The notes under the pieces were generated by a model that saw only the letters and a list, made by a program, of their open reading frames with translations, did no database searches and was not told the origin of the DNA. Shown piece after piece: positions 47,950-64,000 of a stretch of DNA of 64,000 bases. A program made the translations under genes and the position numbers. Location of the stretch: the NCBI GenBank assembly GCA_963848085.1, contig CAWKCE010000005.1, positions 146,282 to 210,281 of the forward strand, given 5' to 3'. This DNA comes from an uncultured Actinomycetota bacterium (GTDB lineage: Bacteria > Actinomycetota > Actinomycetes > JAHEKZ01). Each line of letters opens with the position of its first letter. Positions within the stretch are counted from its first letter, which is position 1.

Positions 47950-48159
47950 GAGACTCCTGCGAGAAGAAGGGCGCGGCGCATCTGCTTGCCCTTAGTCAGC
48001 GCAGTCATCGCAGCAGTCGTACCCGGGCAGGCGCGGTCGACGGCCATCGCTCCGGTACATGTCTCGAACTGTAGGCCGGCACCCACCGGCAGGGAAGGGT
48101 GGACGTTCCTTGTCAGTCAGCCAAGCCGCGATCCCCGAGGGACCTTTGACGGCGGCTCA

Positions 48160-48385
48160 CTGCTATCCCCGGATGTCTGCACGTGGCTCAGGACAGACAT
48201 GCAGCGCCGCAGCCCGGCGCTGTCGGGCATTGACTGGGGCGCTCGATAACCCGGGACGATCACGAGCCTCCGTCGGCCGGCCGCCGCTGGCGAGACAGGT
48301 GAGGAGCGTGGGGTTACCCGCCCCGGTGCACCGCCCAGCGCTGTGTGAGGGCGAGGCGCACATAACGGCACCTCGGTTCGCTCGG
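48160..48385 (+). repeat. degenerate/composite copy of the 48-64 kb repeat family (conserved boxes GGATGTCT..., GTGGGGTT..., GCGCACATAACGGCACCTCGGTTCG; 5' module rearranged)
   Basis: Alignment by eye to copies at 50066, 52621 etc. Confidence 0.6.
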
Positions 48386-48393
48386 TGGCTCAT

Positions 48394-49383: not shown

Positions 49384-49592
49384 GGGCAGCTCCCTCGAAA
49401 CCGACACGCACGGACAAACTCGATCATGCCCCTGCGGCCCCCACAGGAAAGCCGGATCGCACCTATGCGCGGGTCGTCACCTCAGCGGCGGTCCGGCGGG
49501 TCATCCTGCCCGACAAAGCAGGTCCGAATGCCGGTCGACCCCCAGGAAGGCGATCGAGAACGGCACTTCGGTCCGCGGTGGACGGGTGGTGC

Positions 49593-50057
49593 TCAGTCCA
49601 CGACGCTCGGGTTGTCGTCTGGGTTAAACACCGCGATCTCGTCGGCGTTGAGGTCGCACTCTTCTGGGAGGTCGAGGGTGACATCGGCTGAGTCGGGCCG
49701 GGAGTAGCCACCTGTGCCCTTCACCGTCTGCCCCTCGGCGACCAGCGCGCCGGACGGCAGGCGCACCGAGAGCGGGTCGTCGTCCACGAGCTCAGTGCCG
49801 CTGGGCCAGATCGCCGCGACCACCCGGTCCGGTGCATCTGGAGATGCCAGGCCGACGCATCCGTTCTTCACGGTCAGCGTGCCGGCGATCAGCGCATCTA
49901 CGCCTCCTCGGGGCAGCAGGGAGCCGTCATGGACGAGCAGGGTGGCGCTCCCCTGCGTCGTAACCGACTGCCCGCCGCCGCATCCGCTCACCGACGCACT
50001 CAGCACCAGAGCGACGATCACCGGTCCGATGGTCCTCTTGACCTGGATAGCCCCCAC
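49593..50057 (-). CDS. hypothetical lipoprotein (GTG start; signal peptide with VSGC lipobox)
   Basis: N-terminal KRTIGPVIVALVLSASVSGC. Confidence 0.55.
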   Translation of the reverse strand: MGAIQVKRTIGPVIVALVLSASVSGCGGGQSVTTQGSATLLVHDGSLLPRGGVDALIAGTLTVKNGCVGLASPDAPDRVVAAIWPSGTELVDDDPLSVRLPSGALVAEGQTVKGTGGYSRPDSADVTLDLPEECDLNADEIAVFNPDDNPSVVD

Positions 50058-50065
50058 GCGATTCA

Positions 50066-50197
50066 GAATGCCGGATATCGCGCGGATCCGGGACCGGAGC
50101 CAGGGGGTGTCTTAACGATGTGTGGGGTTGCCGGCCTGCGTGCACCGCCCAGACGCTGTGTGAGGGCGAGGCGCACATAGCGGCACTTCGGTTCGGT
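50066..50197 (+). repeat. repeat family copy 1 (reference copy): 5' hairpin CCGGAT-N7-ATCCGG, box GAGCCAGGGGGTGTCTTAACGATGTGTGGGGTT, GC-rich variable centre, 3' box GCGCACATAGCGGCACTTCGGTTCGG
   Basis: Seen directly; non-coding (reading frames not conserved between copies). Confidence 0.85.
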
Positions 50198-50280
50198 CGA
50201 CCGCCGGCTCGTCAGAGGAAATGATCTCCGTTAATGGACACTCACGTCGTAGCAGTTCTGGGGAGGCCCGCTGGTCGGAG

Positions 50281-51300
50281 CTATCTGGTGGGCTGCAGCC
50301 GGACGTGCGTCGCGCCAGTCAGGCCCGGCCCCACCCTCCCGTCGAGCTCGACCCGGACCGCTTCGCGGCCGGTCGCTGAGTCCTGCGTCGCGTAGATCGC
50401 GGTCCCATCGGGCGCCCAGCTGGGCTGCCACACGTGCACGCCCCGGTCGACCGACGTCAGCTGGCGCCCCTCGGAGCCGTCCGGGGCCACGGTCCACAGG
50501 TCCCAGGTGTCGGCCCAGTCCGGCTGGTCGGCGGCGTACTGGACGGTCTCGACGCTGTAGACGATCGCGGATCCGTCGGGACTCCAGTCCGGGTAGTAGG
50601 CGTAGTCCTTGTAGTCGGTGAGCACCGTGGGCTTGCCGCCTGCCAGCGCAACGACGGCGATCGCGGACCCGGTCTCGTCCCCGTTGGCGTCGAAGCGGTC
50701 AATGCCGTAGACGAGCTGCTTGCCATCCGGTGACCACCTCGCGACGTCGACCAAGCGAGGCGAGGAGTCCTGGACGACCTGGCTCATCGTCCCCGACTGC
50801 AGGTCGAGGACCTCGATCGAGGAGGACTTAGGCGGTCCGTCGCGACCGGGTACGTACTGCGTGAACAGGATGCTGAGGCCGTCTGGAGACCACGCCGGGT
50901 AGTCGCAGTCCGAGCAGTCGTGCACGCGCTTCGCTGCAGTACCGTCGGGCGCCATGACCCACAGGCCGGACTTCTGGTCGGCGAAGACGACCCTCGTACC
51001 GTCGGGGGACCAGTCGGGGTGGAAGCCCTGAGCCACCCCTTCGGGGAGCACGTCGCGAGATCCACTCCCGTCGTTGCCCGCGAAGGTCACGCTGTCTCCA
51101 CCCTGAGATCCTTGCCACTGGTACACGAGCAGTGCCCCGGTTGGTACAACCCCGCCGGAGGAGCCCGACTGCGCGGGTGATGAATTCCCGCTTGGCGAGC
51201 CCGGACTCGTGGGCGCGACGGAGCCTCCCGAAGAGCACCCGACCACGACGGCCGCCGTCGCCGCCGCCGCACACGCCAACAGCCTGAGTCGTCGAACCAT
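50281..51300 (-). CDS. TolB-like beta-propeller lipoprotein (PD40/WD40-like repeats)
   Basis: Repeated WSPDG / PDWSPDG blades; lipoprotein signal AAVVVGCSSG; GGAGGG SD. Confidence 0.7.
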   Translation of the reverse strand: MVRRLRLLACAAAATAAVVVGCSSGGSVAPTSPGSPSGNSSPAQSGSSGGVVPTGALLVYQWQGSQGGDSVTFAGNDGSGSRDVLPEGVAQGFHPDWSPDGTRVVFADQKSGLWVMAPDGTAAKRVHDCSDCDYPAWSPDGLSILFTQYVPGRDGPPKSSSIEVLDLQSGTMSQVVQDSSPRLVDVARWSPDGKQLVYGIDRFDANGDETGSAIAVVALAGGKPTVLTDYKDYAYYPDWSPDGSAIVYSVETVQYAADQPDWADTWDLWTVAPDGSEGRQLTSVDRGVHVWQPSWAPDGTAIYATQDSATGREAVRVELDGRVGPGLTGATHVRLQPTR

Positions 51301-51379
51301 CGCGTCGCCCTCCATGGTGGTGCGCGCCCCAGTGGGCGCACGCCCTACCTGGTTTGAGGCACGACCCAGCGCCGAGGTT

Positions 51380-52306
51380 TCACGCCCTCACGGACGAGAT
51401 GCGGCCGGTGTAGGAGAGCGGGAGCTGATGGATGAGCTCCTCGTGGATCCGAGCGGCCACTCCTCCAACGTCAGGCACGGAGGTCTCGCGCAAGCGCAGC
51501 CGCAGACGGTCGCCGTCGCGATGCACGTCGTACGAGGTGTCACTCGGTGGATCTGGCACCTGGTGATGTGTGAGCACGGTCCCGATCAGCTGGTGCGCGC
51601 CGTTGTCGAAATGCTCGCCTGCGGCGGTGCCGAACCAGAAGGCTCCGTTGGCCACCTCGAGCACCCAGCGGGTCTTGCCGCGCGGCATGTGTTCCAGGAT
51701 CGCTTCGGTCTGGTCGCTGAAACGGTGCTCGCGCATCCACGCTGCGCACCAATCCGGCCCGACCAGCTCCTCGCTGACCCAGCGACCCGACATATCCCCG
51801 AGCCGCGACGCCAGTGCGATCCGAGCCCGCCGCAGCCACGTCTTCACAGTGGCCTCGGGGACTCCCAGCTCTCGGGCCACCTGCGCGACCGGGAGGTCCG
51901 CGAGGTAGTGGAGCTTCACCGCGGCGGCGTGCCTCGTCGGCAACGCCGCGATCGCGCGTAGAAGGTCGTCGTCGACAGGGCTCAGGAAGCTGTACGTCTG
52001 ACGCCCGGCCTCCGCTTCGGCCTCCCGAGGCACTCGCCGCGCCTCGCGCTGTGTCGTGCGCCAGGCCAAGCGCGTCGCCACCATCGTGATCCACGCCAGA
52101 GGCTCGTCGCACCTGGCGACGTCGGACCAACGGCGCGCGGCGATCGCATAAGCCTCCTGGACGACGTCGTCCGCCTGCTCTCGGCAGATCGGGCGCAAAG
52201 ACCGGACCAGCCGCGCCGCGTCGGAGGCGTACAGCTGGCCTAGGTCCGGTGGTTGGTCTGCCACCCCGCCATTGTCGGGCCTCTCCGCCGGCGAGCGAAA
52301 GCGCAT
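51380..52306 (-). CDS. ECF-type sigma-70 factor with ~150-aa C-terminal extension; start uncertain
   Basis: Region 2 (DVVQEAYAIAARRW) and region 4 HTH (LPVAQVARELGVPEATVKTWLRRARIAL) followed by extra domain. Confidence 0.7.
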   Translation of the reverse strand: MRFRSPAERPDNGGVADQPPDLGQLYASDAARLVRSLRPICREQADDVVQEAYAIAARRWSDVARCDEPLAWITMVATRLAWRTTQREARRVPREAEAEAGRQTYSFLSPVDDDLLRAIAALPTRHAAAVKLHYLADLPVAQVARELGVPEATVKTWLRRARIALASRLGDMSGRWVSEELVGPDWCAAWMREHRFSDQTEAILEHMPRGKTRWVLEVANGAFWFGTAAGEHFDNGAHQLIGTVLTHHQVPDPPSDTSYDVHRDGDRLRLRLRETSVPDVGGVAARIHEELIHQLPLSYTGRISSVRA

Positions 52307-52620
52307 TGAAGCGCTGAGCCGGAACGTATGACGGCTCCAGCCGAGCGGGGGGAGAGTCCTACCGGTACTACTCGGGTAGCCGGATGACGGAGTGTCAGCA
52401 TGTCGGCCGCGTGGCCGACGAGTTCTCGACGGCCACGCCAAGTCTGACGGCATCGAGCCGCAGTCGCGCTGGCCCCTGCTGGCCGGCCACTGCGGCCAGG
52501 GGCGCTGACCGGCTGCCTAACCGCAGAGACATCACAGAGCGGGACGCAGCTACCGACCGTCTTGGTGCCGCTCACCTGGTGCTCCGACTGCTCCGCCCGC
52601 GTCGGTGCAGTTGAGCAGCC

Positions 52621-52766
52621 TAATGCCGGATCTTGGGCGGATCCGGGACGACGAGCCAGGGGATGTCTTCACGATGTGTGGCGTTACCCGCCCCGGTGCA
52701 CCGCCTCGGGGCATCGCCCAGGCGCTCCGCGAAGGCGCGGGGCATAACGGCACATCTGCGCGTCGC
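52621..52766 (+). repeat. repeat family copy 2 (longer variable centre)
   Basis: taatgCCGGATcttgggcGGATCCGGGAC...GAGCCAGGGGATGTCTTCACGATGTGTGGCGTT...GGCATAACGGCACATCTGCG. Confidence 0.85.
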
Positions 52767-52794
52767 CCGGGGTCCGGACACGTAGCCTGCGGGC

Positions 52795-53148
52795 ATGGAG
52801 AGGACCTCCGACGCCGTAGACGAGTACATGGCGAGCCTGGAAGGCGATGCGCACACGATCGCTCAGGAAGTTCGGCAGATCATCCAACGTGCAGCACCTG
52901 GGATCCACGAGACGCTGCGCTACCAGATGCCGTGCTTCGCGATCGACGGGCAGTACCTGGTCTACCTAGGGGCGTGGAAGAAGCACCTCGGCCTCTATCC
53001 GATCCCGACCCTCGACGGCGAGCTCGAGCGCGATCTCGCGCCCTACCGTGCCGCCACAGACACCGTTCGCTTCCCCTACCGCCAGGCGATCCCCTACGAC
53101 CTCATCGAACGACTCGTCGCGGCACTTGTGGATCGGATACGTGACTGA
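52795..53148 (+). CDS. DUF1801 (YdhG-like) family protein
   Basis: LRYQMPCFAIDGQYLVYLGAWKKHLGLYP motif. Confidence 0.7.
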   Translation: MERTSDAVDEYMASLEGDAHTIAQEVRQIIQRAAPGIHETLRYQMPCFAIDGQYLVYLGAWKKHLGLYPIPTLDGELERDLAPYRAATDTVRFPYRQAIPYDLIERLVAALVDRIRD

Positions 53149-53317
53149 CCGCCAGCCCTGAGACCGAGTGCGTCTGTCGGGCGGGCACGAATGCAGAGCC
53201 GTCTGTCCAGAATCGAGGCAGAACGGCACGTCTGTTCGCGCAGCCATGCGGTCTGCACCGGCCCAGTTGTAGCCTGCGCGAGAGGCCGTCGGGTCGTCAG
53301 GGCTCGACCAGTCCTTG

Positions 53318-53590
53318 ATGGAGGGTTCTGTGGCGATCAAGGTCGTTGTCGAGTTCCAGGCCGAGCCGGGTGCACGCGCGGAACTCATGAGTCTGCTCGC
53401 GAGCATCTCAGCGACACATCAGCCGACAACCCCCGGATTTATCGGCAGCTCGGTGTATGAGGTGCTGGACAACCCTGACGGCGTCATCGAGATCGCCGAG
53501 TGGGAGTCAGCGGAGGCGCAGGCCGCCGCTGCCGAACAAGCGATGGGTCTGGGGGTCGGACCCTCCCCCTACGCGCCGTACCGGGAGTAA
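53318..53590 (+). CDS. antibiotic-biosynthesis-monooxygenase (ABM) domain protein
   Basis: ~90-aa ferredoxin-like ABM pattern (IKVVVEFQAEPGARAEL...VIEIAEWESAEAQAA). Confidence 0.65.
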   Translation: MEGSVAIKVVVEFQAEPGARAELMSLLASISATHQPTTPGFIGSSVYEVLDNPDGVIEIAEWESAEAQAAAAEQAMGLGVGPSPYAPYRE

Positions 53591-53592
53591 CC

Positions 53593-54357
53593 ATGAACAA
53601 AACTCTGCTGATCACCACCGCAGCCGCATCGGTGCTGGCAGTCGCCGGCTGCACGTCCAGCGCCAGTGACAACGCCGCACCCGCCTCACCGGCGGCGGCC
53701 CCCACCACGCAATCGCCGAGCCCAGCTGCTGTCGACGTGCCCAACTGCCCGAATCCTCATGGCGGCAGTTGCCTCGGGACGCTCGAACCGGGCGAGTACC
53801 AGACCACCACCTTCGCGCCGCAGCTGACCTACACCGTTCCAGCGGGGTGGACCAACCTGGAGGACCTACCGGGCAACTTCCTGCTCGAGGACGTGAAAGA
53901 CCCCCAGCCGGACAATGCTCTCGGCGGCAGCTACTTCGGCATATACACCAACGTCTACGCGGCTGCGATCGCCTGCAAGGAAACCTCACAGAAGGGCGTC
54001 GGCATCAAGCCCAAGGAGTTGGTCGCCTGGTACCAGTCCGTGCCCGGGCTCATCGTTTCCACGCCCAAGAAGGTGTCCGTCGGCGGACTCCGCGGACTCC
54101 AAGTCGACCTATCCGCCAAGCCGAAAGAGGAACCGTGCACCTTCGACGGGTACGCAGCGGTACCACTCATCATCGGCGACGGTGTCTCCCAGGTGCATCA
54201 CGTCGTAGGCAAGGGGCAAGACGTCCGGTTGGTCATCTTGGGCTGGAACGACGGCAACGTGACCCTGGAGATCACCAACGTGGACAAGCAACACAGCGCC
54301 AAGGACTACCGAGCCCAGGTCCAGCCGATCATCGACTCGATGGAGTTCAAAGCCTGA
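53593..54357 (+). CDS. hypothetical lipoprotein (signal + AGC lipobox); true start internal to ORF-track entry
   Basis: MNKTLLITTAAASVLAVAGCTSS...; GGGAG SD. Confidence 0.6.
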   Translation: MNKTLLITTAAASVLAVAGCTSSASDNAAPASPAAAPTTQSPSPAAVDVPNCPNPHGGSCLGTLEPGEYQTTTFAPQLTYTVPAGWTNLEDLPGNFLLEDVKDPQPDNALGGSYFGIYTNVYAAAIACKETSQKGVGIKPKELVAWYQSVPGLIVSTPKKVSVGGLRGLQVDLSAKPKEEPCTFDGYAAVPLIIGDGVSQVHHVVGKGQDVRLVILGWNDGNVTLEITNVDKQHSAKDYRAQVQPIIDSMEFKA

Positions 54358-54540
54358 CCACAGGCTGGAGCGGAGCCCGGCCCGGGCCCGGAGCGAGCGA
54401 GCCACGGACCGGACCCGCGCACGGCCTGTAGACCCAACGGCCCATGCCTTGCCGTCCCCCTTGTCGGCGTAGGTTGCGGTGGCCAGTCGGTCGGCGAAGC
54501 GGTGCCCAGTCACGCGCACACTTTGCCAGTGCCAGCCGCG

Positions 54541-54677
54541 CATACTGCCGGATATTGCGAGCAAACGGGACGGGGGCCCAGGGGGTGTCTTAATGATGTG
54601 TGGGGTTCGCCGCCCCGGTGGCCCCGCCCCCAAGCTCCGTGTGGTAGGAGCGCACATAACGGCACCTCTGTTCGGGC
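54541..54677 (+). repeat. repeat family copy 3
   Basis: catactgCCGGATattgcgag...CCCAGGGGGTGTCTTAATGATGTGTGGGGTT...GCGCACATAACGGCACCTCTGTTCGGG. Confidence 0.85.
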
Positions 54678-54771
54678 TCGGACTGAAGAGACGACCTGAT
54701 CCTGGCGGCACCCAGCGGTGGGTCCGCCCTGCTAGAGGGCCGGTCCCTCGGCGCTCGTTCATGCATGACTG

Positions 54772-55443
54772 TTAGGTCGGCGTGTCCCCGAACCGCGTCC
54801 AGTGCCCTTCGGAGACCACGTCGGAGGAACCGTCGACGACCCTGATGGCCGTCTGTTCGTCGATGGCATAAGCCGGGATACCGATGTCGGCGGCCCAGCG
54901 CTCTGCGTCGGCCTGACTGTTCTCCGGGAAGGCGTCCAGGTGCGGGAAGATCGAGAAGTCGACGACTCCCAAGGTGCGGTCGTCCAGGGCTGCTGGCCAC
55001 TCCACGAAGTCCGTTCCGATCCGGGGTGTCATCACCATGCTGCCGGCGCTCACACCCACCCAGACCGTGTCGAGTAGCGACGGCAGTAGCTCGGCGAGGC
55101 CGGACTCCTTCATCCAATGGCACAGGTACGTCGCGTCACCACCGTCGACCAGGAGTGCGTCGGCCTCCCGAACCCAGGGAACCCATCGCTCCGCCCCGAT
55201 GGTGGGAAGCGCGGTCAACTCGAGGACTCCGAGCGATGCCCAGCCCAGGCCTGACAGGTGGTCCCATCCGGGATCGGCGGCCACGAAGCCCCGCACCGAG
55301 GTCGGACCACACATCGGGTGGCCCCATTGCCCGGTGGGGATGCAGAGGGCGTGGCACTCGGTGATCGGCTTGCCGAGAAGCTGCACGAGCGCTGAGTGGA
55401 TGCTTGGGTTCGTGACTCCGCCCGACGTCAGCAGCAGCCGCAT
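54772..55443 (-). CDS. peptidase E (S51) / class-I glutamine amidotransferase-like family protein
   Basis: MRLLLTSGG... and GVSAGSMV nucleophile elbow; GGGAGG SD. Confidence 0.65.
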   Translation of the reverse strand: MRLLLTSGGVTNPSIHSALVQLLGKPITECHALCIPTGQWGHPMCGPTSVRGFVAADPGWDHLSGLGWASLGVLELTALPTIGAERWVPWVREADALLVDGGDATYLCHWMKESGLAELLPSLLDTVWVGVSAGSMVMTPRIGTDFVEWPAALDDRTLGVVDFSIFPHLDAFPENSQADAERWAADIGIPAYAIDEQTAIRVVDGSSDVVSEGHWTRFGDTPT

Positions 55444-55627
55444 GGGGCCTCCCAATTCGTCTCAGGCTGAAGGTAACCATTGCCAGTCAATCTCATGAGT
55501 CACATCAGCCGAACGCGACGGGCCGGTCGCTCGTCAGCAGGCGATCCAGATCGGCACTTCGGCTTCGCCCCGCCAATCCCCAGAGGGAACACCCGTCCTG
55601 CTGGGCTGAGGGCGGCGGGTCGCGGAC

Positions 55628-56212
55628 TCAGGTGGTGCGGCGGTAGCGGATGTGGGTGGTCAATGGTGAGTGCAGCACCTCGGCGGGCTCAAAGCCGAAG
55701 GACGCCACCCCGTCGAAGATGCGCTCGCCCGAACCGAGCAGGACGGGCGCGATGTCGAGGGTGAGTTCATCGATCACGCCGGCGATCAACGCCTGTCGGA
55801 CGGTCGAGGCTCCACCGGCGATGTCCACTCCGTTGCCGCCAGCCGCCTCACGCGCTGCGGAGTAGGCCGCGGCGAAGCCCTCTGTGACGAAGTGGAACGT
55901 CGTCCCTCCGTCCATCTGAATCGAATCTTGGCGGTGATGGGTCAATACGAAGACGGGCGCGTGGTACGGCGGCTCGGGGCCCCACCAACCAGACCAGGCC
56001 TCGTCCCAGTCCCCGCGAATCGGGCCGAACATGTTCCTGCCCATTACATACGCACCTCGGGGGCGCATGAGCCACTCGTTCGCGACCTTGTCCGCGTCGT
56101 TGGCACGCGGGTCGCCGATATGCCAGCCATGCAGCTCCCGCCCCCGCTTTCCCAGGGGCTCCTCCCGGCTCTGATCCGGCCCAGCGACGAACCCGTCAAG
56201 CGCGATCGACAT
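55628..56212 (-). CDS. dihydrofolate reductase-like protein (RibD C-terminal domain family)
   Basis: MSIALDGFVAGPD... and GGASTVRQALIAGVIDELTLDIAPVLLGSGERIFDG signature. Confidence 0.75.
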   Translation of the reverse strand: MSIALDGFVAGPDQSREEPLGKRGRELHGWHIGDPRANDADKVANEWLMRPRGAYVMGRNMFGPIRGDWDEAWSGWWGPEPPYHAPVFVLTHHRQDSIQMDGGTTFHFVTEGFAAAYSAAREAAGGNGVDIAGGASTVRQALIAGVIDELTLDIAPVLLGSGERIFDGVASFGFEPAEVLHSPLTTHIRYRRTT

Positions 56213-56404
56213 ATGGCAAGTGGTGTCCGACACCAAGTGCTCCCAAGCAGTTGCGAAGTGGAAGAAGTCGCCCGGACGATATCGGGCGGCATCTTCCGGG
56301 GCCACCGAACGCGAATGCCGGAGTGGCTGTGCACCCGACGTCCCCTATCGGCAGCTGCCGATCGCGCTCCTCGGCGTTGGATGGCACCGCGCTCGACGTT
56401 GTAG

Positions 56405-56758
56405 TCAGTCGGCCTCAAGGTGCCCGAAGCGGCGAACCTCCTGGGGCCAGCCGCAGGCCTCCGCGATCTTTCCCGCCCACATCGTGGCAGCCTCGTCATC
56501 AGCCACGTCCACCACGGTAAACCCGCCCAAGATCTCCTTGGTCTCCACGAACGGTCCGTTGGTGATCACCAAGGTGCCGCTGGTGGTGTCGGCGCTGTAG
56601 ACCGGGCCGTCCTGCTCCAGCCCACCGGCGAAGAGGTACGCGCCAGCAGCCTTGATCTCGTCCACCACCGCCTCGGCGAGCGGTCCGCGCGCGCGGAACC
56701 ACTCCTCGGTGTGGTCGCCCACCCACTGCTGGTTGAAGTAGATGAGGTACTCGGCCAT
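56405..56758 (-). CDS. YciI-like (YCII-related) domain protein
   Basis: MAEYLIYFN...GPLAEAVVDEIKAAGAYLFAGGL...GGFTVVDV pattern. Confidence 0.65.
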   Translation of the reverse strand: MAEYLIYFNQQWVGDHTEEWFRARGPLAEAVVDEIKAAGAYLFAGGLEQDGPVYSADTTSGTLVITNGPFVETKEILGGFTVVDVADDEAATMWAGKIAEACGWPQEVRRFGHLEAD

Positions 56759-56913
56759 GACCACTCCTTCTCCTCCGGGGACCCAATGGCCCGCGTCGCC
56801 TACCCTACGAACGGCAACAGGCGAATCCGACTCGGTCACACCAGAGCGAACACCGGGCATCGGCCTGGCAACGGCGAGTCCTCCCGCTCATCGGCATGAG
56901 CGCCGCCGGAGGC

Positions 56914-56990
56914 CGCGCATACTGCCGGTGATCTCAACCGGTCGATGCAACACCCTCGTTGTTTGGGGGTCGTGTCGTCGGGAGGTTGGG
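56914..56990 (+). repeat. relic partial copy of the repeat family (shares 15-mer CGCGCATACTGCCGG with copy 3)
   Basis: Seen directly; rest diverged. Confidence 0.4.
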
Positions 56991-57120
56991 ATGGTCAGGT
57001 TGTCGGTGGAGGAGAAGGCGGAGATTCGGAAGTTGGCGGGGGCGTAGCGGCCCAATGGCTCGGCGCGTCGCAGCTATAGAGTCACAACCCACGAGTCGTG
57101 CGAGGCGAAGGAGACTTGCG

Positions 57121-57591
57121 GTGGAGATCAAGGAACTCGGGCACCTGGTTCTCTACGTGCGCGACCTCAAGGCGTCGGTGCACTTCTACCGCGACGTCCT
57201 GGGCTGGCGACCGATCCTCGGCGGAGACGACGACGAACCGCTGCCGTTTCCGGCCGCCGCCTTCAACGCGCCGTCCAACCGCACCCACCACGAGCTGCTG
57301 CTCATCGAGGTCGGCAAGGACGCCACTGCGATCCCGCACGGCCGACGCGTGGGTCTGTACCACTTCGGCCTCAAGGTCGGCGACAGCGACGACGAGCTGC
57401 GCGAGGCACTCGCCACACTGCAGGAGAACGACGTTACGATCCTCGGTTCCAGCGACCACACGGTGACGCACAGCCTCTACATCGCCGACCCCGACGGCAA
57501 CGAGGTCGAGCTGTTCATCGACGTCCCCGGCGTCGACTGGAAGAACGACCCGGCGCTCATCGCCGCCCCGGTCAAGCCCCTCGTGCTCTGA
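57121..57591 (+). CDS. VOC/glyoxalase-family protein (GTG start, AAGGAGA SD)
   Basis: (V)EIKELGHLVLYVRDLKASVHFYRDVLGW...HHELLLIEV...GLYHFGLKV pattern. Confidence 0.75.
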   Translation: MEIKELGHLVLYVRDLKASVHFYRDVLGWRPILGGDDDEPLPFPAAAFNAPSNRTHHELLLIEVGKDATAIPHGRRVGLYHFGLKVGDSDDELREALATLQENDVTILGSSDHTVTHSLYIADPDGNEVELFIDVPGVDWKNDPALIAAPVKPLVL

Positions 57592-57709
57592 ACGAGCCCG
57601 CTGATCCTGACAAGGACGTCTATCCTTCCAACGCCGGGCGCTAACTCCCCGCGACGGTCAGTGGGCGCCGATCCCGAGCGGGCCGCCAGTGTGACGGATC
57701 AATGAGCGC

Positions 57710-57843
57710 GAATGCCGGATATTTGGCGGCCCCGGGACCACGAGCCAGGGGATGCCTTAACGATGTGTGGGTTTGCCGGCCCAGGCGCCCCGCCCAGGCG
57801 CTCCGCGAGGGCGGGGCGCCGACAACGACACGTCGGTTCGGGT
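57710..57843 (+). repeat. repeat family copy 4
   Basis: GAATGCCGGATatttggcGGCCCCGGGACcacGAGCCAGGGGATGCCTTAACGATGTGTGGGTTT...CGGTTCGGG. Confidence 0.85.
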
Positions 57844-58381
57844 TGGGCCTGCCGTGACACCCGGTTTCAGCTCGGGCCGTGCCACCGGACTTCAGCCACT
57901 TCCGACCGGGACGCTCTTGAGACCAGCGGACCGGACGACTGGTGTATGCCCAGGTCGTCGGCGGTGACCCGTCACCCAAGGGCGCCGAGCAGACCGAGTC
58001 GGCAAGCCCCGGTGCTCCTCATGCCGACATTCGCCCGAGGCTGACCTTGCGTACAACAGGTCAGTCGGCCGCAAGGCGCCAGGGTTCGCCCGCCGACGCT
58101 CATCGTCCGCCAGGCGCTTCGTCGCGACCGGGTCAACGACGCTAGGACCGGCGAAACGGTCATACAACGAGCGACGGCCACCAAACAGGCACAGGCGCCA
58201 TCCCAAGGCCTCCCCCGCAACCCCACACCAGTTGGTCCTTCTCGGCTTCCCGCCTCCGGGGCATTCCCTCTGGACACCCGAGACGCTAGACAGCCTGACC
58301 CGGCGCTATCCGGCTCTCGACATCGAGCCGTGGCTGGCCGCTGCGCCCTTGGACTGATCACGGCCACGCACTGAGGGCGAG

Positions 58382-59113
58382 TTACGACTCCAGCTCCCAC
58401 AGCTTGCGGTAGTAGGCGATCCGTTCCTCGTCCGGTTCGATTCCGTAGGACTCGAAGAACTCACCTTGATGGCCTTCACCGAAGTTCCAGTCGAGGCTCA
58501 AGGAGGCGATGGCCAGGTCCGCCCATCGGTCGCCCACCGCCAAGTCACCGAAGTCGACGTTGCCCGTCCACTCCCCGGAGGACGAGATCAGCGTGTTGGG
58601 TGCACACGCGTCCCCGTGGACAACCACCGGCTCATCCACTGGGGGGCGGGGGCCGATCGATGGAGGCGTGCGACCGACCCAGACCTCCGATGTCCAGCCG
58701 GCTGGGAAATCATCGGTGGGGATCGAATGAATAGATCGAAGGCCCACGGCGATGGCCCGGATCGCCTCCGGCCGACGGGCGCGCCAGTTGTCTCCGACAG
58801 CGTGCTCGCCGGGCAGCGCCTCGGTGACAAGCCACTGGGCCGCCTCGTCCCCGCCGAAGTCGAGCACCCGCGGAGCCGGATGGCGCTTCGAGATCCACTC
58901 GAGCCGCACCTTCTCTCGCCCCAGATCAACACCGGCCGACCGCGGATACCACTTCACATACGTATCGCCGGCACAGAAGGTCAGACCGCCAAGTTCGCTG
59001 CGCCAGATGAGGTCCTTGGGACGCGCCCCGGCTAGCTGGACCACGATGTCCGGCACGGGATCATCCCCCAGGGAGTGAAGGGCATCCAGGTCCGAGAGGT
59101 CGCTTCCCGTCAT
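58382..59113 (-). CDS. aminoglycoside phosphotransferase (APH family, APH(3')-like); alternative TTG start at 59146
   Basis: VVHGDACAPNTLI and VDFGDLAVGDRWADLAIA motifs (Brenner and DFG-like). Confidence 0.8.
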   Translation of the reverse strand: MTGSDLSDLDALHSLGDDPVPDIVVQLAGARPKDLIWRSELGGLTFCAGDTYVKWYPRSAGVDLGREKVRLEWISKRHPAPRVLDFGGDEAAQWLVTEALPGEHAVGDNWRARRPEAIRAIAVGLRSIHSIPTDDFPAGWTSEVWVGRTPPSIGPRPPVDEPVVVHGDACAPNTLISSSGEWTGNVDFGDLAVGDRWADLAIASLSLDWNFGEGHQGEFFESYGIEPDEERIAYYRKLWELES

Positions 59114-59317
59114 GGCATCAGGTTCCCCGTCGCGCGGGCGTTTCAACTATTCCCGCCCGCTGGCCTTGCGAGCAGCGACCTCGACGCGGACGTGGTACGC
59201 CTTCCACCGACAGGCCAGCCGGCCTGTCGGGTCGCCGGGACCGAAGGCCTGCCCATGCCCACGGACCCGACACAAGACGGTCAGGTGCGCCGATAATCGG
59301 ACCCACGTGACGGCGGT

Positions 59318-60025
59318 TCAGTTCTTCGTCGCAGGGGACTGGGCGACGCATACGACTCCGGTGTTGCCGTCCTGGTCGGCGATCACGGTGAGCGACGGCG
59401 CGTCGCTGTCATCGACGACCGTCCCACCCGCGGCGACGGCCGCGGCGATTCGTTGCTCGGCCACCTCGGGCGCCACATAGACCTCGACGTGGAACCGCTG
59501 ACGCGGGGTCTCGTGCTCGTCGGCGTCCCCGAACCACAGGTTCGGTACCCGACCCGTGGCGTCCCGGATCTCGTCGCTGGGGGACCCGTGGCCCTGGGCT
59601 CCGGCGTTCCCGGTCAGCAGGGCGGCCCACACCGGGGCGATGGTCGCGGAGTGCGCCGTGTCGAGGCCGAGCTCGATGACGCTGACCGAGGCGGGGTCGG
59701 CGTCGACCTTGTGCTCGGCGGCGATCTCGGTGATCCGTCGCGCGAGGTCGACGTCCTGCTGGGTCACCCATTCGACGACGTGTTCGGTGCCCTCGTCGTC
59801 GCGGTAGATGGCGTCGGCGCTGACCAGCTTGAGGTCGACGTACCCGTCGCCGATCGCCACGCTCGGGTGGTGTCCGAGCGCGTCGCCCGCCTCGCCTACC
59901 GTGGCGACGAACCGTGCGCCGGTGCCGAAGTCGTCGACCAGGTAGCGGGCATGCAGTCCCTGTGCCAGCTTGCGCCAGTCGGTCAGCTTGGCCTCGGCGA
60001 TCTCCTCGCCCTTCAGCATGTCCAT
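59318..60025 (-). CDS. fusion protein: pterin-4a-carbinolamine dehydratase (PCD/DCoH) domain + VOC/glyoxalase-like domain
   Basis: N-terminal ...LTDWRKL...GDALGHHPSVAIGDGYVDLKLVS (E-x-HHP-like motif); C-terminal glyoxalase-like half. Confidence 0.6.
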   Translation of the reverse strand: MDMLKGEEIAEAKLTDWRKLAQGLHARYLVDDFGTGARFVATVGEAGDALGHHPSVAIGDGYVDLKLVSADAIYRDDEGTEHVVEWVTQQDVDLARRITEIAAEHKVDADPASVSVIELGLDTAHSATIAPVWAALLTGNAGAQGHGSPSDEIRDATGRVPNLWFGDADEHETPRQRFHVEVYVAPEVAEQRIAAAVAAGGTVVDDSDAPSLTVIADQDGNTGVVCVAQSPATKN

Positions 60026-60182
60026 GTTCGGGGACCCTAACTGTGATTCAGCCGAAGCGGGGCTGGGTGCGCCGCGGGGCCCTGACTGCGCGTCAGCTGC
60101 GCTTTGCGTCGATCGCTCGGTCGACGATGTTCCCTCCGGAATATCGCCACGTCCAAATCCCGCCCGACCACCGGCGATGCCT

Positions 60183-60295
60183 CATGCCGGATACTGCGCG
60201 GATCCGGGACCGGGCCAGGGGATGTCTTGACGATGTGTGGGGTTAGCCGCCCCGATGCTCTGTGAGGGGGCGCACATATCGGCACTTCAGCGCAG
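60183..60295 (+). repeat. repeat family copy 5 (shortest)
   Basis: catgCCGGATactgcgcGGATCCGGGACcGGGCCAGGGGATGTCTTGACGATGTGTGGGGTT...GCGCACATATCGGCACTTCAGCG. Confidence 0.85.
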
Positions 60296-60367
60296 GTCCT
60301 CTGACCGTCCGGTGTGCCCTCATTGAGTGTCCATGCTGGTGTGCCTGACACGAGGTCGCTGGTTGCC

Positions 60368-61690
60368 CTATGCCGTCGGGTCGACGACGTGTCCGACGAA
60401 GACCGGCGTTTGAGTGGGTTCGTGGACCACTGCCCAGGCGTACGGCCGGTCTACTCCCATCGTCTTCGTGGTGATGGGACCTGAGACAAGCATTCCGATA
60501 CCGGTGACGGCGGCAGCTTCGGACCCTTCCTCGTCGACGGTGATGTTCGCGCGATGAACTGCCTGGCTGACCGTCACTCCGGGAGCAATACCGGTGAGGT
60601 CACCCAGACTGCTGAGACCCAGCGCGCTCAGCGCACTCAGCAGCTCCAAGTCCGTGCCGGTGTCCCAGCGAGGCAGGGTGAGGTCCACCGCTTGGGTCGC
60701 GTCGGCCGCTACCGGGGCGGTGGCGACCGGCAACAGAGCGTTCAGGGCGGGCAGGTCGCGCACCACGGTTCGCGGGAGCACGACGCGCATGGTCAGCTCG
60801 TCGCCGACGTACGGCAGGGTGATCCGTTGCCACCGGTCGTTCTCGGTGTACCGGACTGGCTCGGTCGTCTGGCGCATCATCTGTGCCTGCACTGACGAGC
60901 CGGCGGAGGTTGTGAAGAGTCCGGTTGTGGTGGCTGAGGCGGAGAACTGGGTGACCCAGGTGGCCTTGAGGTAGACGGCGTTGGCGAGCACCATCAGCGT
61001 GTTGGGGTCGAGCTGGTCGAAGAGTCTCTTGATCCGGCCGTGAGTCTGCTTCGTCACCCAGGCGTTGATGGTCTCTGTCGCTGCCGGGGAGCCGAAGTCC
61101 ACACTGTCTGGGTGCGCTCCGTACTGGGCAGCGAGCAGGTCGAGGAATGGCTGTTCGACCGAAGGTCCGAATCCGTCAGCCACGAACAGCCCGTTGGCGA
61201 CCGCGACCACGGGGGTCGGGGCCGGCTGCTCGCTCGGTGGCGGTGGCGGGGTCACCAGGTGCGCCGTGAGTGCGTTCAGAGCCTGGTGCGGTGAACCTTC
61301 GGCGCGGTTGCTCGGCGGAAAACCAAACACAGCGTCGATCTGGGTGGCAGTCTCCCCGCGACTTCCCGCGCGCAACATCCCGAAGGCCACCGCGATCGAC
61401 AGCGGCGACACGGTGAAGTTGGCTGACGGTGCGGCAGCAAGAGCGTGCAGATGCGAGGCAAACGCGTCCATCCCCGCCACAACTTCGGGCAGGTCGGGCG
61501 CTTCGGACAGCGAGACGACGGCTCTGTCGACCTGGGACACCCTGATCGGCCCCGCTGGTCCACCTCCACCCGGGGCCGCTGACTGGGAACACCCCACCAG
61601 GGCCGGCGCCGCCCCGACTGCGAGGAGACCGAGCATCGTGAGCATGGTCCGACGAGAGAGCAGTTCGGCCGAGCGGTCAACCGGTTGCAT
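60368..61690 (-). CDS. serpin-family serine protease inhibitor with Tat-like/lipoprotein signal; true start internal to 482-aa ORF
   Basis: NAVYLKATWVTQF..., RCL-like C-terminal region; N-terminal SRRTMLTMLGLLAVGAAPALVGC. Confidence 0.7.
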   Translation of the reverse strand: MQPVDRSAELLSRRTMLTMLGLLAVGAAPALVGCSQSAAPGGGGPAGPIRVSQVDRAVVSLSEAPDLPEVVAGMDAFASHLHALAAAPSANFTVSPLSIAVAFGMLRAGSRGETATQIDAVFGFPPSNRAEGSPHQALNALTAHLVTPPPPPSEQPAPTPVVAVANGLFVADGFGPSVEQPFLDLLAAQYGAHPDSVDFGSPAATETINAWVTKQTHGRIKRLFDQLDPNTLMVLANAVYLKATWVTQFSASATTTGLFTTSAGSSVQAQMMRQTTEPVRYTENDRWQRITLPYVGDELTMRVVLPRTVVRDLPALNALLPVATAPVAADATQAVDLTLPRWDTGTDLELLSALSALGLSSLGDLTGIAPGVTVSQAVHRANITVDEEGSEAAAVTGIGMLVSGPITTKTMGVDRPYAWAVVHEPTQTPVFVGHVVDPTA

Positions 61691-61872
61691 CAAGAACGGC
61701 CACCTTCCCCTACTCCACCTACGACGACTGGGCGACCTCGCCCGTTCCTCGACGCCGCAAGTACCTCCCGACATGCGGAAACACAGCCGACCTCCGCCAC
61801 TCGGTGGCGGCAGCACAGTGGTGGCGTGTCAACAATCGGTGCCAACTGTCGCACGCGCCGCCCAGGCAAACC

Positions 61873-61993
61873 GAATGCCGGATGCCGGGCTGTTCCGGGG
61901 AGAAGCGAGTCAGGGGACGGATGGGCGATGTGTGGGGTCGCCCGCCAGGTGCTCTACGAGGCCGGCGAGGCACACATGACGGCGCATCTGCAC
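61873..61993 (+). repeat. repeat family copy 6 (more diverged)
   Basis: GAATGCCGGATgccgggctgTTCCGGGGAgaagcGAGTCAGGGGAcGGATGGGCGATGTGTGGGGTcg...GCACACATGACGGCGCATCTGC. Confidence 0.8.
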
Positions 61994-62019
61994 CGGGTCC
62001 GATCCAGATCCGAGTTGCG

Positions 62020-62481
62020 CTAGTCCTCGATGACATCCAGACCCTGCTCTCGGAGCAGTGCCAAGCGATCGAGCATGCCCTTCAGCACTTCCGGGGAGTG
62101 CCCCTCCCACTTCTCCACCTCGCTGACTACCAGCAGCGGATGGCGGGTGCGGTAGGACTGTGTGATGTTGCCGGGGAACTTCTTGTTCGTCACGTTGGGG
62201 TCGTCCTCGAAGGGGCCGGTGGGCCTGACGACATAGATGTAGCCCCGCTCTCCGGTACCCGCGCGAGCAGTCGCCAGCTCCGCCCCCCATGCCGCGGTGT
62301 CCACGAGCGCGGTGAAGTAGATGTTGTTCGACACCCTGCCTTCGTGGAAGTTGGAGCCGTAACCGGGCAGGAGCTCTTCTCCGACCGTGAGCGCGGATTT
62401 CGTTCCGTGGTAGAAGGGTCCCTCGATGTGGTCGCAGTTCTCGTAGGTAACCGGAATGTGCGTGCTTCTGGGTTCTTCCAC
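62020..62481 (-). CDS. arr: NAD(+)--rifampin ADP-ribosyltransferase (Arr); GTG start; the 317-aa ORF-track entry is over-extended
   Basis: EGPFYHGTKSALTVGEELLPGYGSNFHEGRVSNNIYFTALVDTAAWGAELA...GYIYVVRPTGPFEDDPNVTNKKFPGNITQSYRTRHPLLVVSEVEKWEGH matches the Arr family along its length; GAGAGGA SD. Confidence 0.85.
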   Translation of the reverse strand: MEEPRSTHIPVTYENCDHIEGPFYHGTKSALTVGEELLPGYGSNFHEGRVSNNIYFTALVDTAAWGAELATARAGTGERGYIYVVRPTGPFEDDPNVTNKKFPGNITQSYRTRHPLLVVSEVEKWEGHSPEVLKGMLDRLALLREQGLDVIED

Positions 62482-62665
62482 ACGTGTCCTCTCGAATTCA
62501 TCCGACGCTCTGGGTGGCACCCGAATCTGGCGGCTATCACCTACGGCCGGGTCGGCAGGCGCGAACGATACAACGCCCCTCAAGGGAAGCACGCCAGACA
62601 TTCCTTGGCCCGGGTCCCGAAGGACCCATGACCCTCGTCCGCCCAACCCTGGAATAGTCCCTGTC

Positions 62666-62965
62666 ATGGGCGACCCGCCGGAACTTCGCCACAGCGGACA
62701 CTGGAGGATCGCTGTTTGGGCCCTTCGAGTGGGGTACGTCGGGCTGGCCGTCGCCATTGCCGGCCTCATCGTGACGTCGTTGGGATACACGCCGTGGGTG
62801 CTGGCCGTTGGGGTGATCATTTGGCTCGCCGCCGCAGCCGTCACGTTGGCGGGGTTCTTCTGGTCCCGGCACGAGCTTCCCGAGCCACGACCTGGGTTCT
62901 GGTCGATGCGGTTCATGCTCGTCCACGACACGGTCCACGCCCAGTCGCCGTCCCAGCGGTCCTGA
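62666..62965 (+). CDS. hypothetical small membrane protein (2 TM helices)
   Basis: MGDPPELRHSGHWRIAVWALRVGYVGLAVAIAGLIVTSLGYTPWVLAVGVIIWLAAAAV... Confidence 0.4.
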   Translation: MGDPPELRHSGHWRIAVWALRVGYVGLAVAIAGLIVTSLGYTPWVLAVGVIIWLAAAAVTLAGFFWSRHELPEPRPGFWSMRFMLVHDTVHAQSPSQRS

Positions 62966-63070
62966 CAGCCCATTCCTCGGCCGCTGCGTCCGCCGTACGC
63001 CAGTCTCCCGACTCGTCCACCGACCCGGATGTGCCACCACCGATCGGCTTCGAAGGGTGCCCCGTATCAC

Positions 63071-63190
63071 TGGAAATTGGGGACTTCCGGGACTCACGAG
63101 TCAGGAGATGTCCTCGCGACCTGTGGGGTTCCCCGCCCACCGCCCGGGCGCTCCGCGAGCTACGGGGAACACATACCCGCACATCTTGCG
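63071..63190 (+). repeat. repeat family copy 7 (5' hairpin module diverged)
   Basis: ...TTCCGGGACtcacGAGTCAGGAGATGTCctcGCGAcctGTGGGGTTcc...ACACATAcccGCACatcttgcg. Confidence 0.75.
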
Positions 63191-63267
63191 CGCCTCACCG
63201 GCAGGCCACGTACCTCGGGGGCCTGGTCAGTAGTGCGTTCGCGGCGTGACGGCCGTAGATTCCCAGG

Positions 63268-63621
63268 ATGGGCCTGGAATGGGAGCAAGTGGTCGTGGAC
63301 GCCGCAGACCCGGTGATGTTGGGCCGGTGGTGGGCTAACGCCCTCGGATGGGTCGTGGTGAACGACGCGCCGGAAGAGTTCGAGATACAACCCGCGGCGG
63401 ATCGGCTGCCCGGACTGATCTTCGAACCAGTCGGAGAGGCGAAGGGCGGCAAGAACCGTCTTCACTTGGACTTCCGGCCCGACGACCAGCAGGCCGAAGT
63501 CGCGCGCCTCCTGGGCCTCGGCGCTCGGCACGCGGACGTCGGCCAGGGACAGCAGTCCTGGGTCGTGCTGGCAGATCCCGAAGGCAACGAGTTCTGTGTG
63601 CTGTCATCCAAACGCACGTAG
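63268..63621 (+). CDS. VOC/glyoxalase-family protein (bleomycin-resistance/glyoxalase I-like fold)
   Basis: MGLEWEQVVVDAADPVMLGRWWANALGW...RLHLDF...VVLADPEGNEFCV. Confidence 0.7.
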   Translation: MGLEWEQVVVDAADPVMLGRWWANALGWVVVNDAPEEFEIQPAADRLPGLIFEPVGEAKGGKNRLHLDFRPDDQQAEVARLLGLGARHADVGQGQQSWVVLADPEGNEFCVLSSKRT

Positions 63622-63709
63622 CCACCTCAGCCTCCGTCCATGCTCGGTAGGCGACGGCAGCCAATCCAACTGGGGGCAGTCCGGGCTGTCCGGCACCCGA
63701 GCGATCGTC

Positions 63710-63835
63710 CCGGATGTTGGCCGGCTCCGGGACCCACGAGTCAGGGATGTCCCAGCGATGCGTGAGGTTGGCTGGTGAAGGGACGCCCCTCCAATTGGAG
63801 AGCCAGTCGCGTGCGCACAGAACGGCACTGCGGGG
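63710..63835 (+). repeat. repeat family copy 8
   Basis: CCGGATgttggccGGCTCCGGGACccacGAGTCAGGGATGTCccagCGATGcGTGAGGTT...GCGCACAGAACGGCACTGCGGGG. Confidence 0.8.
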
Positions 63836-63893
63836 CGGTCAGTTTGGACCAGCTGAAGGCGGTCTGGCTCTGGCCGGGGCCGGTCTCGTTCGA

Positions 63894-64000
63894 TCAGACA
63901 AGTGGGTCGAACATGATCTCCCGGACCTCCTGCGCACAGCGGCACGCGACGGCGAACTTGGCAGCCCACTCCAGCGCATCCTCGCGCGAGGGCACGTCGA
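63894..64000 (-). CDS. YciI-like domain protein, C-terminal fragment (gene runs off window end)
   Basis: C-terminus ...EDALEWAAKFAVACRCAQEVREIMFDPLV resembles C-terminus of the YciI-like protein at 56405-56758 (...EAATMWAGKIAEACGWPQEVRRF...). Confidence 0.45.
   Translation of the reverse strand, partial: DVPSREDALEWAAKFAVACRCAQEVREIMFDPLV

Follow-up and report, generated by a model that had tools for sequence, protein, structure and literature searches.

Two neighbouring genes in an uncultured actinomycete raise the question of whether a resistance-type kinase gene and the gene next to it form a functional pair, or whether they came to share the same repeat-bounded slot independently. They lie in a 64,000-nt stretch of contig CAWKCE010000005.1 (assembly GCA_963848085.1, positions 146,282 to 210,281 of the forward strand), referred to below as the window. 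One encodes an aminoglycoside phosphotransferase (APH)-like kinase, and the other, here called PCD-VOC, encodes a pterin-4a-carbinolamine dehydratase (PCD)-like domain fused to a glyoxalase/VOC domain. The module probably consists of two accessory genes that arrived by horizontal transfer, are independent and self-sufficient, and share one slot of a hypervariable, repeat-delimited array. Both genes are fairly ordinary, and the unusual part is the array that surrounds them.

Two genes in one slot

Both genes were found between two long copies of a direct repeat (Table 1), in agreement with an earlier, sequence-only reading of this DNA, which had placed them in one repeat-bounded module. The same reading took them to be paired, and this was not borne out. 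The PCD-VOC gene adjoins an APH homolog in none of 80 APH loci, an APH gene adjoins PCD-VOC in none of five PCD-VOC loci, a hairpin lies between the two genes in the window, and their transfer histories differ. The hairpin is followed by no T-run and was left uncalled by the terminator scan, which demands one; it is a putative U-tract-less terminator. The ribosome-binding site (RBS) of the kinase gene also lies between the two genes. The module is present at 99.1% identity in a metagenome contig of the same species (L084) and absent from a syntenic relative (L085), and it is therefore accessory. As far as can be judged from sequence, the two genes would be co-residents and not a functional pair.

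That they form a functional two-gene unit or operon is highly improbable: they do share one orientation and one repeat-bounded slot at a distance of 204 nt, and two Klenkia genomes carry a Glyoxalase_6-only gene 270-1100 nt downstream of the APH homolog, but adjacency is wanting in 78 of the 80 APH loci and in all five PCD-VOC loci, PCD-VOC travels as a 750-bp unit with a promoter of its own, the DNA between the genes contains a perfect hairpin as well as a separate RBS, and Glyoxalase_6 genes are so common (at least four in 16 kb here) that the Klenkia adjacency is expected by chance. The product of the Klenkia gene (L074:11832-12248 and L075:10998-11414) is 36% identical to the VOC half of PCD-VOC, and its proximity to the APH homolog is probably a coincidence, these domains being so common.

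The PCD-VOC gene has spread recently between orders as a promoter-plus-ORF unit, and this is its real oddity. Over the unit (Table 1), the window is 97.5% and 95.8% identical at the nucleotide level to two metagenome contigs (L081 and L082, respectively), 92.2% to Catellatospora sichuanensis (L096), 89.4% to Ornithinimicrobium avium (L095) and 88.0% to Agromyces (L097). Outside it no DNA match to any of these five was found; their flanks are unrelated and the gene contexts all differ. The shared upstream 35 nt contain a TAGGGT -10-like hexamer (60034-60039), 8 nt before the ATG, which fits the actinobacterial -10 hexamer, so that PCD-VOC is probably transcribed from its own promoter as a leaderless mRNA.

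Synonymous divergence of PCD-VOC ranges from 0.06 to 0.35 (dS, Nei-Gojobori, L082 left out; dS 0.12 to Catellatospora), with dN/dS of 0.2-0.55. Syntenic genes in L085, the closest available relative, have dS of 1.0 (EamA) and 0.30 (the C-terminus of a serpin), and PCD-VOC has therefore moved between actinobacterial orders far later than the lineages diverged. Protein clustering gives the same contrast. The 90% cluster of PCD-VOC has 271 members from several actinobacterial families, including Terrabacter and Arthrobacter, whereas EF-Tu of the host (HUW15791.1; window 17304-18497, minus strand) is the sole member of its own 90%-identity cluster among ~15 billion proteins, which also indicates that the lineage of the window is poorly sampled. 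A protein that is more uniform across actinobacterial orders than EF-Tu, at low synonymous divergence, has the marks of a recently swept mobile gene and is a good target for function discovery.

As to the vehicle, the copy of O. avium (CP031229.1) lies among three tyrosine integrase genes (L095, 1886-9217), which suggests an integrative island as one means of spread, and no plasmid match was found in PLSDB. A conserved gene with no Pfam match directly follows PCD-VOC in three of the loci (L082:10987-11364, L095:6765-7355 and L097:6702-7295; ~196 aa in L095 and L097, 125 aa as called on L082). The window lacks it and has the APH gene downstream instead.

The history of the kinase gene is a different one. 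Its 243-aa subfamily spans Actinomycetota, Chloroflexota and Deinococcota, with relatives at 62-74% identity in Acidimicrobiia, Geodermatophilaceae, Nanopelagicales, Mycobacteriales and Microbacterium, and also in Chloroflexia, Limnocylindria, Anaerolineaceae, a Saccharimonadales MAG (metagenome-assembled genome) and Truepera. Kinases of Chloroflexia MAGs are ~72% identical to it, as against 62-64% for Klenkia, which belongs to the same class as the window organism; this departure from taxonomy implies horizontal transfer over time. Clustering at 50% yields 1,928 clusters for the family (E<=1e-3), short and long forms both. The 243-aa subfamily was not found on the plasmids of PLSDB, where the best relatives are 44% identical (on a Streptomyces plasmid and a Mycobacterium intracellulare plasmid) and the APH(3')-Ia, APH(3')-IIb and APH(3'')-Ib genes are 28-33% identical.

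All-against-all clustering of the ORFs within 4 kb of the kinase homologs in the 80 loci gave no conserved neighbour, the recurrent clusters being only generic ABC ATPases, histidine kinases and ArsR, and self-BLAST of every locus showed nothing systematic in the way of repeat arrays. In a Nanopelagicales MAG (L005), an 88-nt inverted repeat (9096-9183 and 11223-11310, 88.6% identical) flanks the APH homolog at 10001-10708, and no repeat of this type was seen in the other APH loci.

A repeat-delimited array of small cassettes

The array is chromosomal and belongs to the MAG of an uncultured "Actinomycetes bacterium". The window has a G+C content of 64-75% and carries rpoB/rpoC, fusA, tuf and a tRNA cluster. 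At least ten long copies of a ~135-nt direct repeat and five short copies, all on the plus strand, are spread between 48.3 and 64.4 kb. An nhmmer search with a profile built from the copies detected nine long copies in the window (E 2e-20 to 9e-36), all on the plus strand and all at or beyond 48288, and none in 1-48 kb. Contig L086, from the same strain (99.97% identical), runs 3.2 kb past the window and contains one more partial copy and then none; beyond the array it carries cupin, DinB/MST and glyoxalase genes.

Table 1. Coordinates of the features of the two-gene module and of the surrounding array (window positions)
Feature	Position	Strand	Basis and details
APH(3')-like phosphotransferase CDS	58382..59113	-	243 aa; Pfam, NCBIfam, AF2, Foldseek, homolog length, DNA homology limits
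GGGGAA ribosome-binding-site-like element	59123..59128	-	9 nt upstream of ATG 59113; read from sequence
Hairpin (CCGACAGGCC-AGCC-GGCCTGTCGG)	59207..59230	.	Perfect 10-bp stem, 4-nt loop; between PCD-VOC stop and APH start
PCD-like (Pterin_4a) + Glyoxalase_6 (VOC) two-domain protein	59318..60025	-	235 aa, one uninterrupted frame; Pfam
Horizontally shared unit	59311..60059	-	PCD-VOC ORF + ~35 nt upstream + ~7 nt downstream; DNA comparison
Spacer, apparently non-coding	57847..58381	.	536 nt between left repeat copy and APH stop
Long repeat copy, left module boundary	57702..57846	+	nhmmer E=2.9e-33; left motif AATGCCGG at 57711; right motif AACGACAC at 57824-57831
Long repeat copy, right module boundary	60174..60298	+	nhmmer E=6.1e-28; left motif CATGCCGG at 60183; right motif ATCGGCAC at 60278-60285
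Repeat-delimited cassette array	48288..64000	+	Repeat finding, nhmmer, motif scans; continues to ~64.4 kb on L086
Long repeat copies, starts	~48288 (partial), 50058, 52613, 54535, 57702, 60174, 61867, 63059, 63699	+	nhmmer
Tenth long copy, partial	near window-equivalent 64348 on L086	+	Found on L086 extension
Short/degenerate repeat forms	49524-49575, 53188-53240, 55530-55565, 56306-56365, 56915-57052	+	Intergenic gaps

The long copies are 60-85% identical among themselves. The short forms, ~55 nt in length, keep only both ends (GAATGCCGG ... AACGGCAC) and split multi-gene modules into mostly single-gene cassettes, and a long or a short form occurs in nearly all intergenic gaps between 48.3 and 57.8 kb. 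The 8-mer AATGCCGG was found six times, each time on the plus strand of the array, and had no other match on either strand. For the right-end 17-mer, nine matches were obtained against 3.0 expected (maximum of seven in 100 shuffles), eight of them on the plus strand in the array. Next to the right end of five of the nine long copies in the window, the stop codon of a minus-strand gene follows within 14-92 nt. The left part of the long repeat reads CCGGAT(A/C)-N7-GATCCGG, with inverted arms of 6-7 bp and a spacer of 7-9 nt (50071-50092 and equivalents), and resembles a recombinase core-type site. Arm pairing is kept by a compensatory change in the long copy at 63097; the short forms have no CCGGAT arms.

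Most cassettes are single genes in either orientation, with room for a promoter of their own. The slot of the kinase and PCD-VOC genes (~57832 to 60182) is atypical, as it holds two genes and a 536-nt non-coding stretch and has no internal repeat. The repeat copy that the sequence-only reading saw after the kinase stop codon does bound the module, but it does not follow the stop directly, the spacer lying between. A hidden gene in this spacer was rejected, since no frame has gene-like GC3 and only junk-like ORFs occur; the spacer, in which a degenerate right-end-like motif (ATCACGGCCAC) lies ~25 nt from the kinase stop codon, may be what is left of a decayed cassette.

Small families of detoxification type abound in the array (54772-57591 and 63268-64232, with the L086 extension), namely peptidase S51, RibD_C, two YCII and three further VOC/Glyoxalase genes. 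An Arr-type NAD+-rifampin ADP-ribosyltransferase is encoded at 62020-62481 (minus strand; 177 bits with NF033144, cutoff 130); its mechanical ORF extends to 62973, but on L086 the called gene has 153 aa. A full-length bacterial serpin gene (60368-61816, minus strand; Pfam E=6.7e-78) makes up one cassette, and its 3' end is the conserved right flank in common with L085.

The content of the array was compared with one related array (L085) and one strain variant (L084). A 25-mer of the repeat matched metagenome contigs of only the same species (L083 and L084) and of this one relative. L085 is 84-87% identical to and collinear with the window at 40075-48079 and again in the serpin gene at 60334-60838; between these flanks it has 3.3 kb of other genes with three repeat copies, compared with 12 kb in the window. 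Its cassettes carry a lipoprotein-like gene, another ADH and a DsrE-like gene. Cassettes shared between the two arrays were considered and rejected, the two ADH genes being only distant paralogs. Similarity in the first copy ends right after AACGGCAC, and the stop codon of a different gene comes next in each genome.

Over 3.28 kb, L084 and the window are 99.1% identical; to the left of 57048, directly behind the AACGGCAC of a short form, they diverge fully, which is a strain-level rearrangement at a repeat end. Comparison of L084:1-60 with window 56950-57052 showed a different, clean short-form repeat in L084 upstream of the VOC gene (56959-57591). Taken together, the L085 and L084 junctions suggest recombination at or beside the AACGGCAC motif. 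The mismatches of L084 cluster in the first ~80 nt right of the junction, and homologous exchange also fits.

The repeats could well be passive, lineage-specific REP/MITE or terminator-insulator elements in a recombination-prone island, into which both genes were brought by ordinary homologous recombination and illegitimate insertion; this account stops just short of being probable. It agrees with the lack of a nearby recombinase (no recombinase or transposase domain was found in any ORF between 44 and 64 kb, nor on L086 and L087 in the 3.2 kb that follow the window), with a GC-rich central hairpin of the kind typical of U-tract-less terminators, with the degree of identity among the copies, which would hence be old and drifting, and with the boundaries of the kinase and PCD-VOC units, which do not match the repeats. 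It is harder to reconcile with the extreme clustering and strictly single orientation of the copies and with the non-homologous junctions at the same motif in two independent comparisons; moreover, neither an inverted repeat between the repeat ends nor a flank duplication was evident on reading the copy ends.

Other identities for the repeat were also sought. Rfam gave only four tRNAs and no repeat match, over the whole window at gathering thresholds and over 57.6-60.4 kb at E<=1. A structured RNA or single-stranded DNA was rejected as a candidate: RNAalifold gave a weak fold of -10.3 kcal/mol on the plus strand with three of 20 pairs compensated, and single-copy z was ~0. Folding compared with shuffled sequence gave z from -2.3 to +0.9, that is, no extra stability. 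A small ORF was rejected as well, because the conserved ATGCCGGAT reads Met-Pro-Asp but indels between copies break the frame. With nhmmer, no repeat copies were detected beside APH homologs in the 80 GTDB loci or at the PCD-VOC loci L081 and L082. A repeat 22-mer had no matches in viral contigs, and a loose two-motif regular expression run over all loci gave background noise only. The contexts of the EamA homologs P0464 and P0432 were non-syntenic, so that walking the array from them was uninformative.

It seems unlikely, on the other hand, that the repeats, short forms included, are recombination sites of an integron-like, integrase-less site-specific platform, where a recombinase working in trans would insert, excise or swap promoter-bearing cassettes of either orientation at the ...AACGGCAC| junction. 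Equally doubtful is the corresponding definition of the site, under which each site of a previously undescribed gene-capture array would begin on the left with GAATGCCGG (in long forms with CCGGAT-N7-ATCCGG after it) and finish on the right with ...CATAACGGCAC|, where the junction falls. Such a platform would account for the ten co-oriented long copies, which crowd into 16 kb and are missing from the remaining 48 kb, for the concentration of AATGCCGG and the right-end 17-mer on the plus strand of the array, for the filling of nearly every gap up to 57.8 kb by a repeat form, for minus-strand stop codons close to five of the nine long-copy right ends, and for the two comparisons: in L085 the flanks are conserved and the cassettes wholly different, with similarity ending after AACGGCAC, and L084 diverges at the same motif of a short form. 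However, neither the array nor its flanks (4 kb on the left, 2.8 kb on the right) contain a recombinase or transposase, the repeats have neither attC-like boxes nor a global palindrome and fold no more stably than shuffled sequence, and the case draws on one related array and one strain variant, of which the latter, with its mismatches near the junction, fits homologous recombination or gene conversion as well. In addition, no repeat separates the kinase gene from PCD-VOC, whose mobile unit elsewhere ends at its own promoter and stop codon. A real platform of this type would mean that gene capture operates in a phylum from which complete integrons are reported to be absent (PMC4889954).

The kinase and the PCD-VOC protein

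The preferred reading, that of two independent accessory genes in one slot, also bears on what each protein does. The mechanical ORF of the kinase, 58382..59146 on the minus strand, encodes 254 aa and reaches back to a TTG at 59146, the start adopted by the sequence-only reading. The ORF itself stands, but translation most likely begins with the ATG at 59113, which makes the CDS 58382-59113 (243 aa). This start is preferred because nearly all close homologs have this length (243 aa in almost all of >2,500 kinase homologs), because DNA similarity to related loci stops at 59113-59115, and because a GGGGAA Shine-Dalgarno-like element lies 9 nt upstream. In the 80 related loci, nucleotide similarity is restricted to 58367-59115, starting at 59113-59115 and ending at 58367-58388.

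The kinase matches Pfam APH (PF01636) with E=9.5e-21 and 75.1 bits, above the gathering threshold of 23.2. Its best NCBIfam model is APH(3') (NF033068, 146.2 bits), followed by APH(3''), and it falls far under the cutoffs of all NCBIfam APH subclass models. The best PDB sequence matches were APH(3')-IIb, -VIII, -IIa and -Ia. The AlphaFold2 (AF2) model, built with 42 homologs as input, is confident (pLDDT 91.8), and its top 46 Foldseek matches in the PDB were all APH(3') or APH(3''), at 22-28% identity to the solved structures; the leading ones, APH(3')-IIb/Ia/IIa/IIIa, had TM 0.69-0.73 and probability 1.0. APH(3')/APH(3'') enzymes were thus the best matches throughout, and not homoserine kinases or other non-resistance kinases, and the assignment of the protein to the APH family in the sequence-only reading is upheld by the HMM, PDB-sequence and fold neighbours alike.

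The catalytic motifs HGDACAPN (of the HGDxxxxN type) and VDFGDLAVGDR are intact, as that reading had noted. In an alignment of 42 sequences, Lys54, Glu67, H166-G-D168...N173 and D187-F-G are invariant in the subfamily, and these residues align with NPTII and APH(3')-IIb. Lys54 and Glu67 are predicted to anchor ATP, HGD168ACAPN173 to form the catalytic loop and D187FG to provide the Mg2+ ligand. The protein is predicted from these residues and from the model to be a catalytically competent member of the APH(3')/APH(3'') lineage, with a eukaryotic-protein-kinase-like fold. It is an APH(3')-like kinase from a large environmental, short (243-aa) subfamily that is uncharacterised so far.

The substrate is less easily assigned. 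In an alignment with NPTII, the kinase is 28% identical and lacks ~27 residues between query positions 137 and 160. The lost region is a helical insertion that carries the acidic DQDDLDEEHQ loop in NPTII, and the model has one short helix (138-142) where the two-helix insertion is expected. NPTII R226, D227, E230 and D261 are replaced by L, S, W and W, and only E262 is retained. Aminoglycoside binding in NPTII (1ND4) involves the D/E-rich 154-163 loop, D227, E230 and D261/E262. The replaced positions S204, S206, D208, W209, N210 and W239 are invariant within the subfamily, which therefore has a conserved pocket of its own, and many invariant Trp residues occur across the 42-sequence alignment. 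The kinase would transfer the gamma-phosphate of ATP or GTP onto a hydroxyl of a small molecule and so inactivate or modify it, the likeliest class of substrate being an aminoglycoside or aminocyclitol-type antibiotic. This substrate may differ from kanamycin and neomycin, because the acidic insertion loop is missing and the invariant, Trp-rich pocket is the subfamily's own.

PCD-VOC is a genuine fusion and no artefact of ORF calling, since it is read in a single frame and all of the 120 homologs listed (of 4,344 matched) have both Pfam domains. The same count speaks against the view of the sequence-only reading that its architecture is unusual. Residues 4-101 match Pterin_4a (PF01329; E=8.4e-11, 42.3 bits, threshold 26) and residues 120-222 match Glyoxalase_6 (PF18029; E=3.6e-12, 47.3 bits, threshold 23.6). 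The listed homologs are 84-97% identical, nearly all 235 aa long, and come from Cryobacterium, Agromyces, Leifsonia, Catellatospora, Longispora, Jiangella, Ornithinimicrobium and Acidimicrobiales MAGs; the protein is among the commonest and most uniform small proteins of Actinomycetes. It falls under all NCBIfam PCD equivalog cutoffs (NF002017: 44.1 against 80 bits). Its HHP dyad (GHHPSV) is kept, and an insertion alters the spacing to an aromatic residue and the third His; the PCD catalytic signature reportedly includes that His at canonical spacing. A profile search of PDB sequences gave no relatives, and no paper on the fusion was found in the literature. PCD-VOC may be a VOC protein with a role in detoxification or in binding small molecules, and its PCD-like domain would serve as an oligomerisation or ligand module.

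Several points weigh against the picture of two self-sufficient genes of resistance or detoxification type. The kinase score lies below the NF033068 equivalog cutoff of 205 bits, aminoglycoside-binding residues of NPTII are deleted or replaced, no match of the 243-aa subfamily bears an experimentally based name, and its uniform length at 65-80% identity across phyla could equally mean a conserved non-antibiotic function. For PCD-VOC, the AF2 model is poor (pLDDT 52) and the assignment of a function is a guess. Co-transcription of the two genes is possible as judged from sequence.

Other APH-fold enzymes of Actinobacteria act on metabolites, for example maltokinases and glucosamine kinases. For the glucosamine kinases with this fold, the occurrence in Actinobacteria is reported in PMC6520443. 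The kinase might accordingly phosphorylate a sugar, an amino-sugar or another hydroxylated small molecule and not be a resistance enzyme, a possibility to be entertained but on balance unlikely. It would explain the score under the curated APH(3') cutoff, the deletion of the acidic loop and the replaced NPTII positions, the many invariant Trp residues, and the constant length and high identity over three phyla. It is at odds with the absence of a conserved pathway neighbourhood in the 80 loci, with a patchy distribution that disagrees with taxonomy, as is typical for accessory or resistance genes, with closest relatives that are resistance APHs at each level of comparison, and with the bona fide Arr rifampin ADP-ribosyltransferase in the same island. 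A role of the kinase in resistance is plausible but unproven. The label of a second resistance-type gene, given by the sequence-only reading, thus stands as far as an APH(3')-like kinase is concerned, but not as a statement on resistance, in view of the curated cutoff, the low identity and the ~27 missing residues. No paper on the 243-aa subfamily was found in the literature. For resistome surveys it is a cautionary case, as thousands of 243-aa proteins are auto-labelled "kanamycin kinase" or "aminoglycoside 3'-phosphotransferase" although the subfamily scores under the curated cutoff and has no aminoglycoside-binding loop; re-annotation would touch a very large environmental family of three phyla.

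Comparison with known systems

Compared with APH(3')-IIa (NPTII), -IIb, -Ia and -IIIa, the kinase has in common the bilobal kinase fold, the HGDAC(L/A)PN loop, the DFG-like Asp, the ATP-binding Lys/Glu pair and the C-terminal YYR/FYR helix. It differs from them in identity (22-28%) and in length (243 aa compared with ~264 aa), in lacking the ~27 insertion residues with the acidic loop, and in the replacement of several acidic substrate-binding positions. With the streptomycin phosphotransferases APH(3'')-Ia/Ib/Id it shares fold and motifs, with Foldseek matches to 6fuc and 6fux and a score of 76.8 bits, which is lower than that with APH(3') and far under the APH(3'') cutoff of 325 bits.

The N-terminal 100 residues of PCD-VOC match PF01329 as PCD/DCoH proteins (PhhB, COG2154) do, with the HHP catalytic dyad kept. 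The protein differs from these in a ~12-residue insertion (IYRDDEGTEHVVEW) where the third catalytic His normally sits and in its fusion to a VOC domain, and neither phenylalanine hydroxylase nor Moco genes are nearby. Its C-terminal 105 residues match PF18029 and contain the DQDGN motif that typifies VOC strands, as in VOC/Glyoxalase_6 proteins, including those of bleomycin- or fosfomycin-resistance type. An invariant Cys226 follows this motif, at a position that may normally hold a metal-binding Glu in VOC proteins.

The array itself invites comparison with sedentary chromosomal integrons and with CALIN elements, which are attC arrays that lack an integrase. It differs from them in that no intI is nearby, the repeats do not have the R''/L''/L'/R' palindromic architecture, the cassettes have their own promoters and lie in both orientations, and the host is an actinomycete. 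By eye, no attC R'' or R' boxes (RYYYAAC, GTTRRRY) were seen in the aligned copies, in which AAC and GTT triplets are unconserved and in the wrong order, and the repeat has a local 6-7-bp hairpin only, with no global palindrome. It is like them in being an array of co-oriented, 55-135-nt repeats between mostly single-gene cassettes of accessory or resistance type, the content of which varies among relatives while the flanks are conserved.

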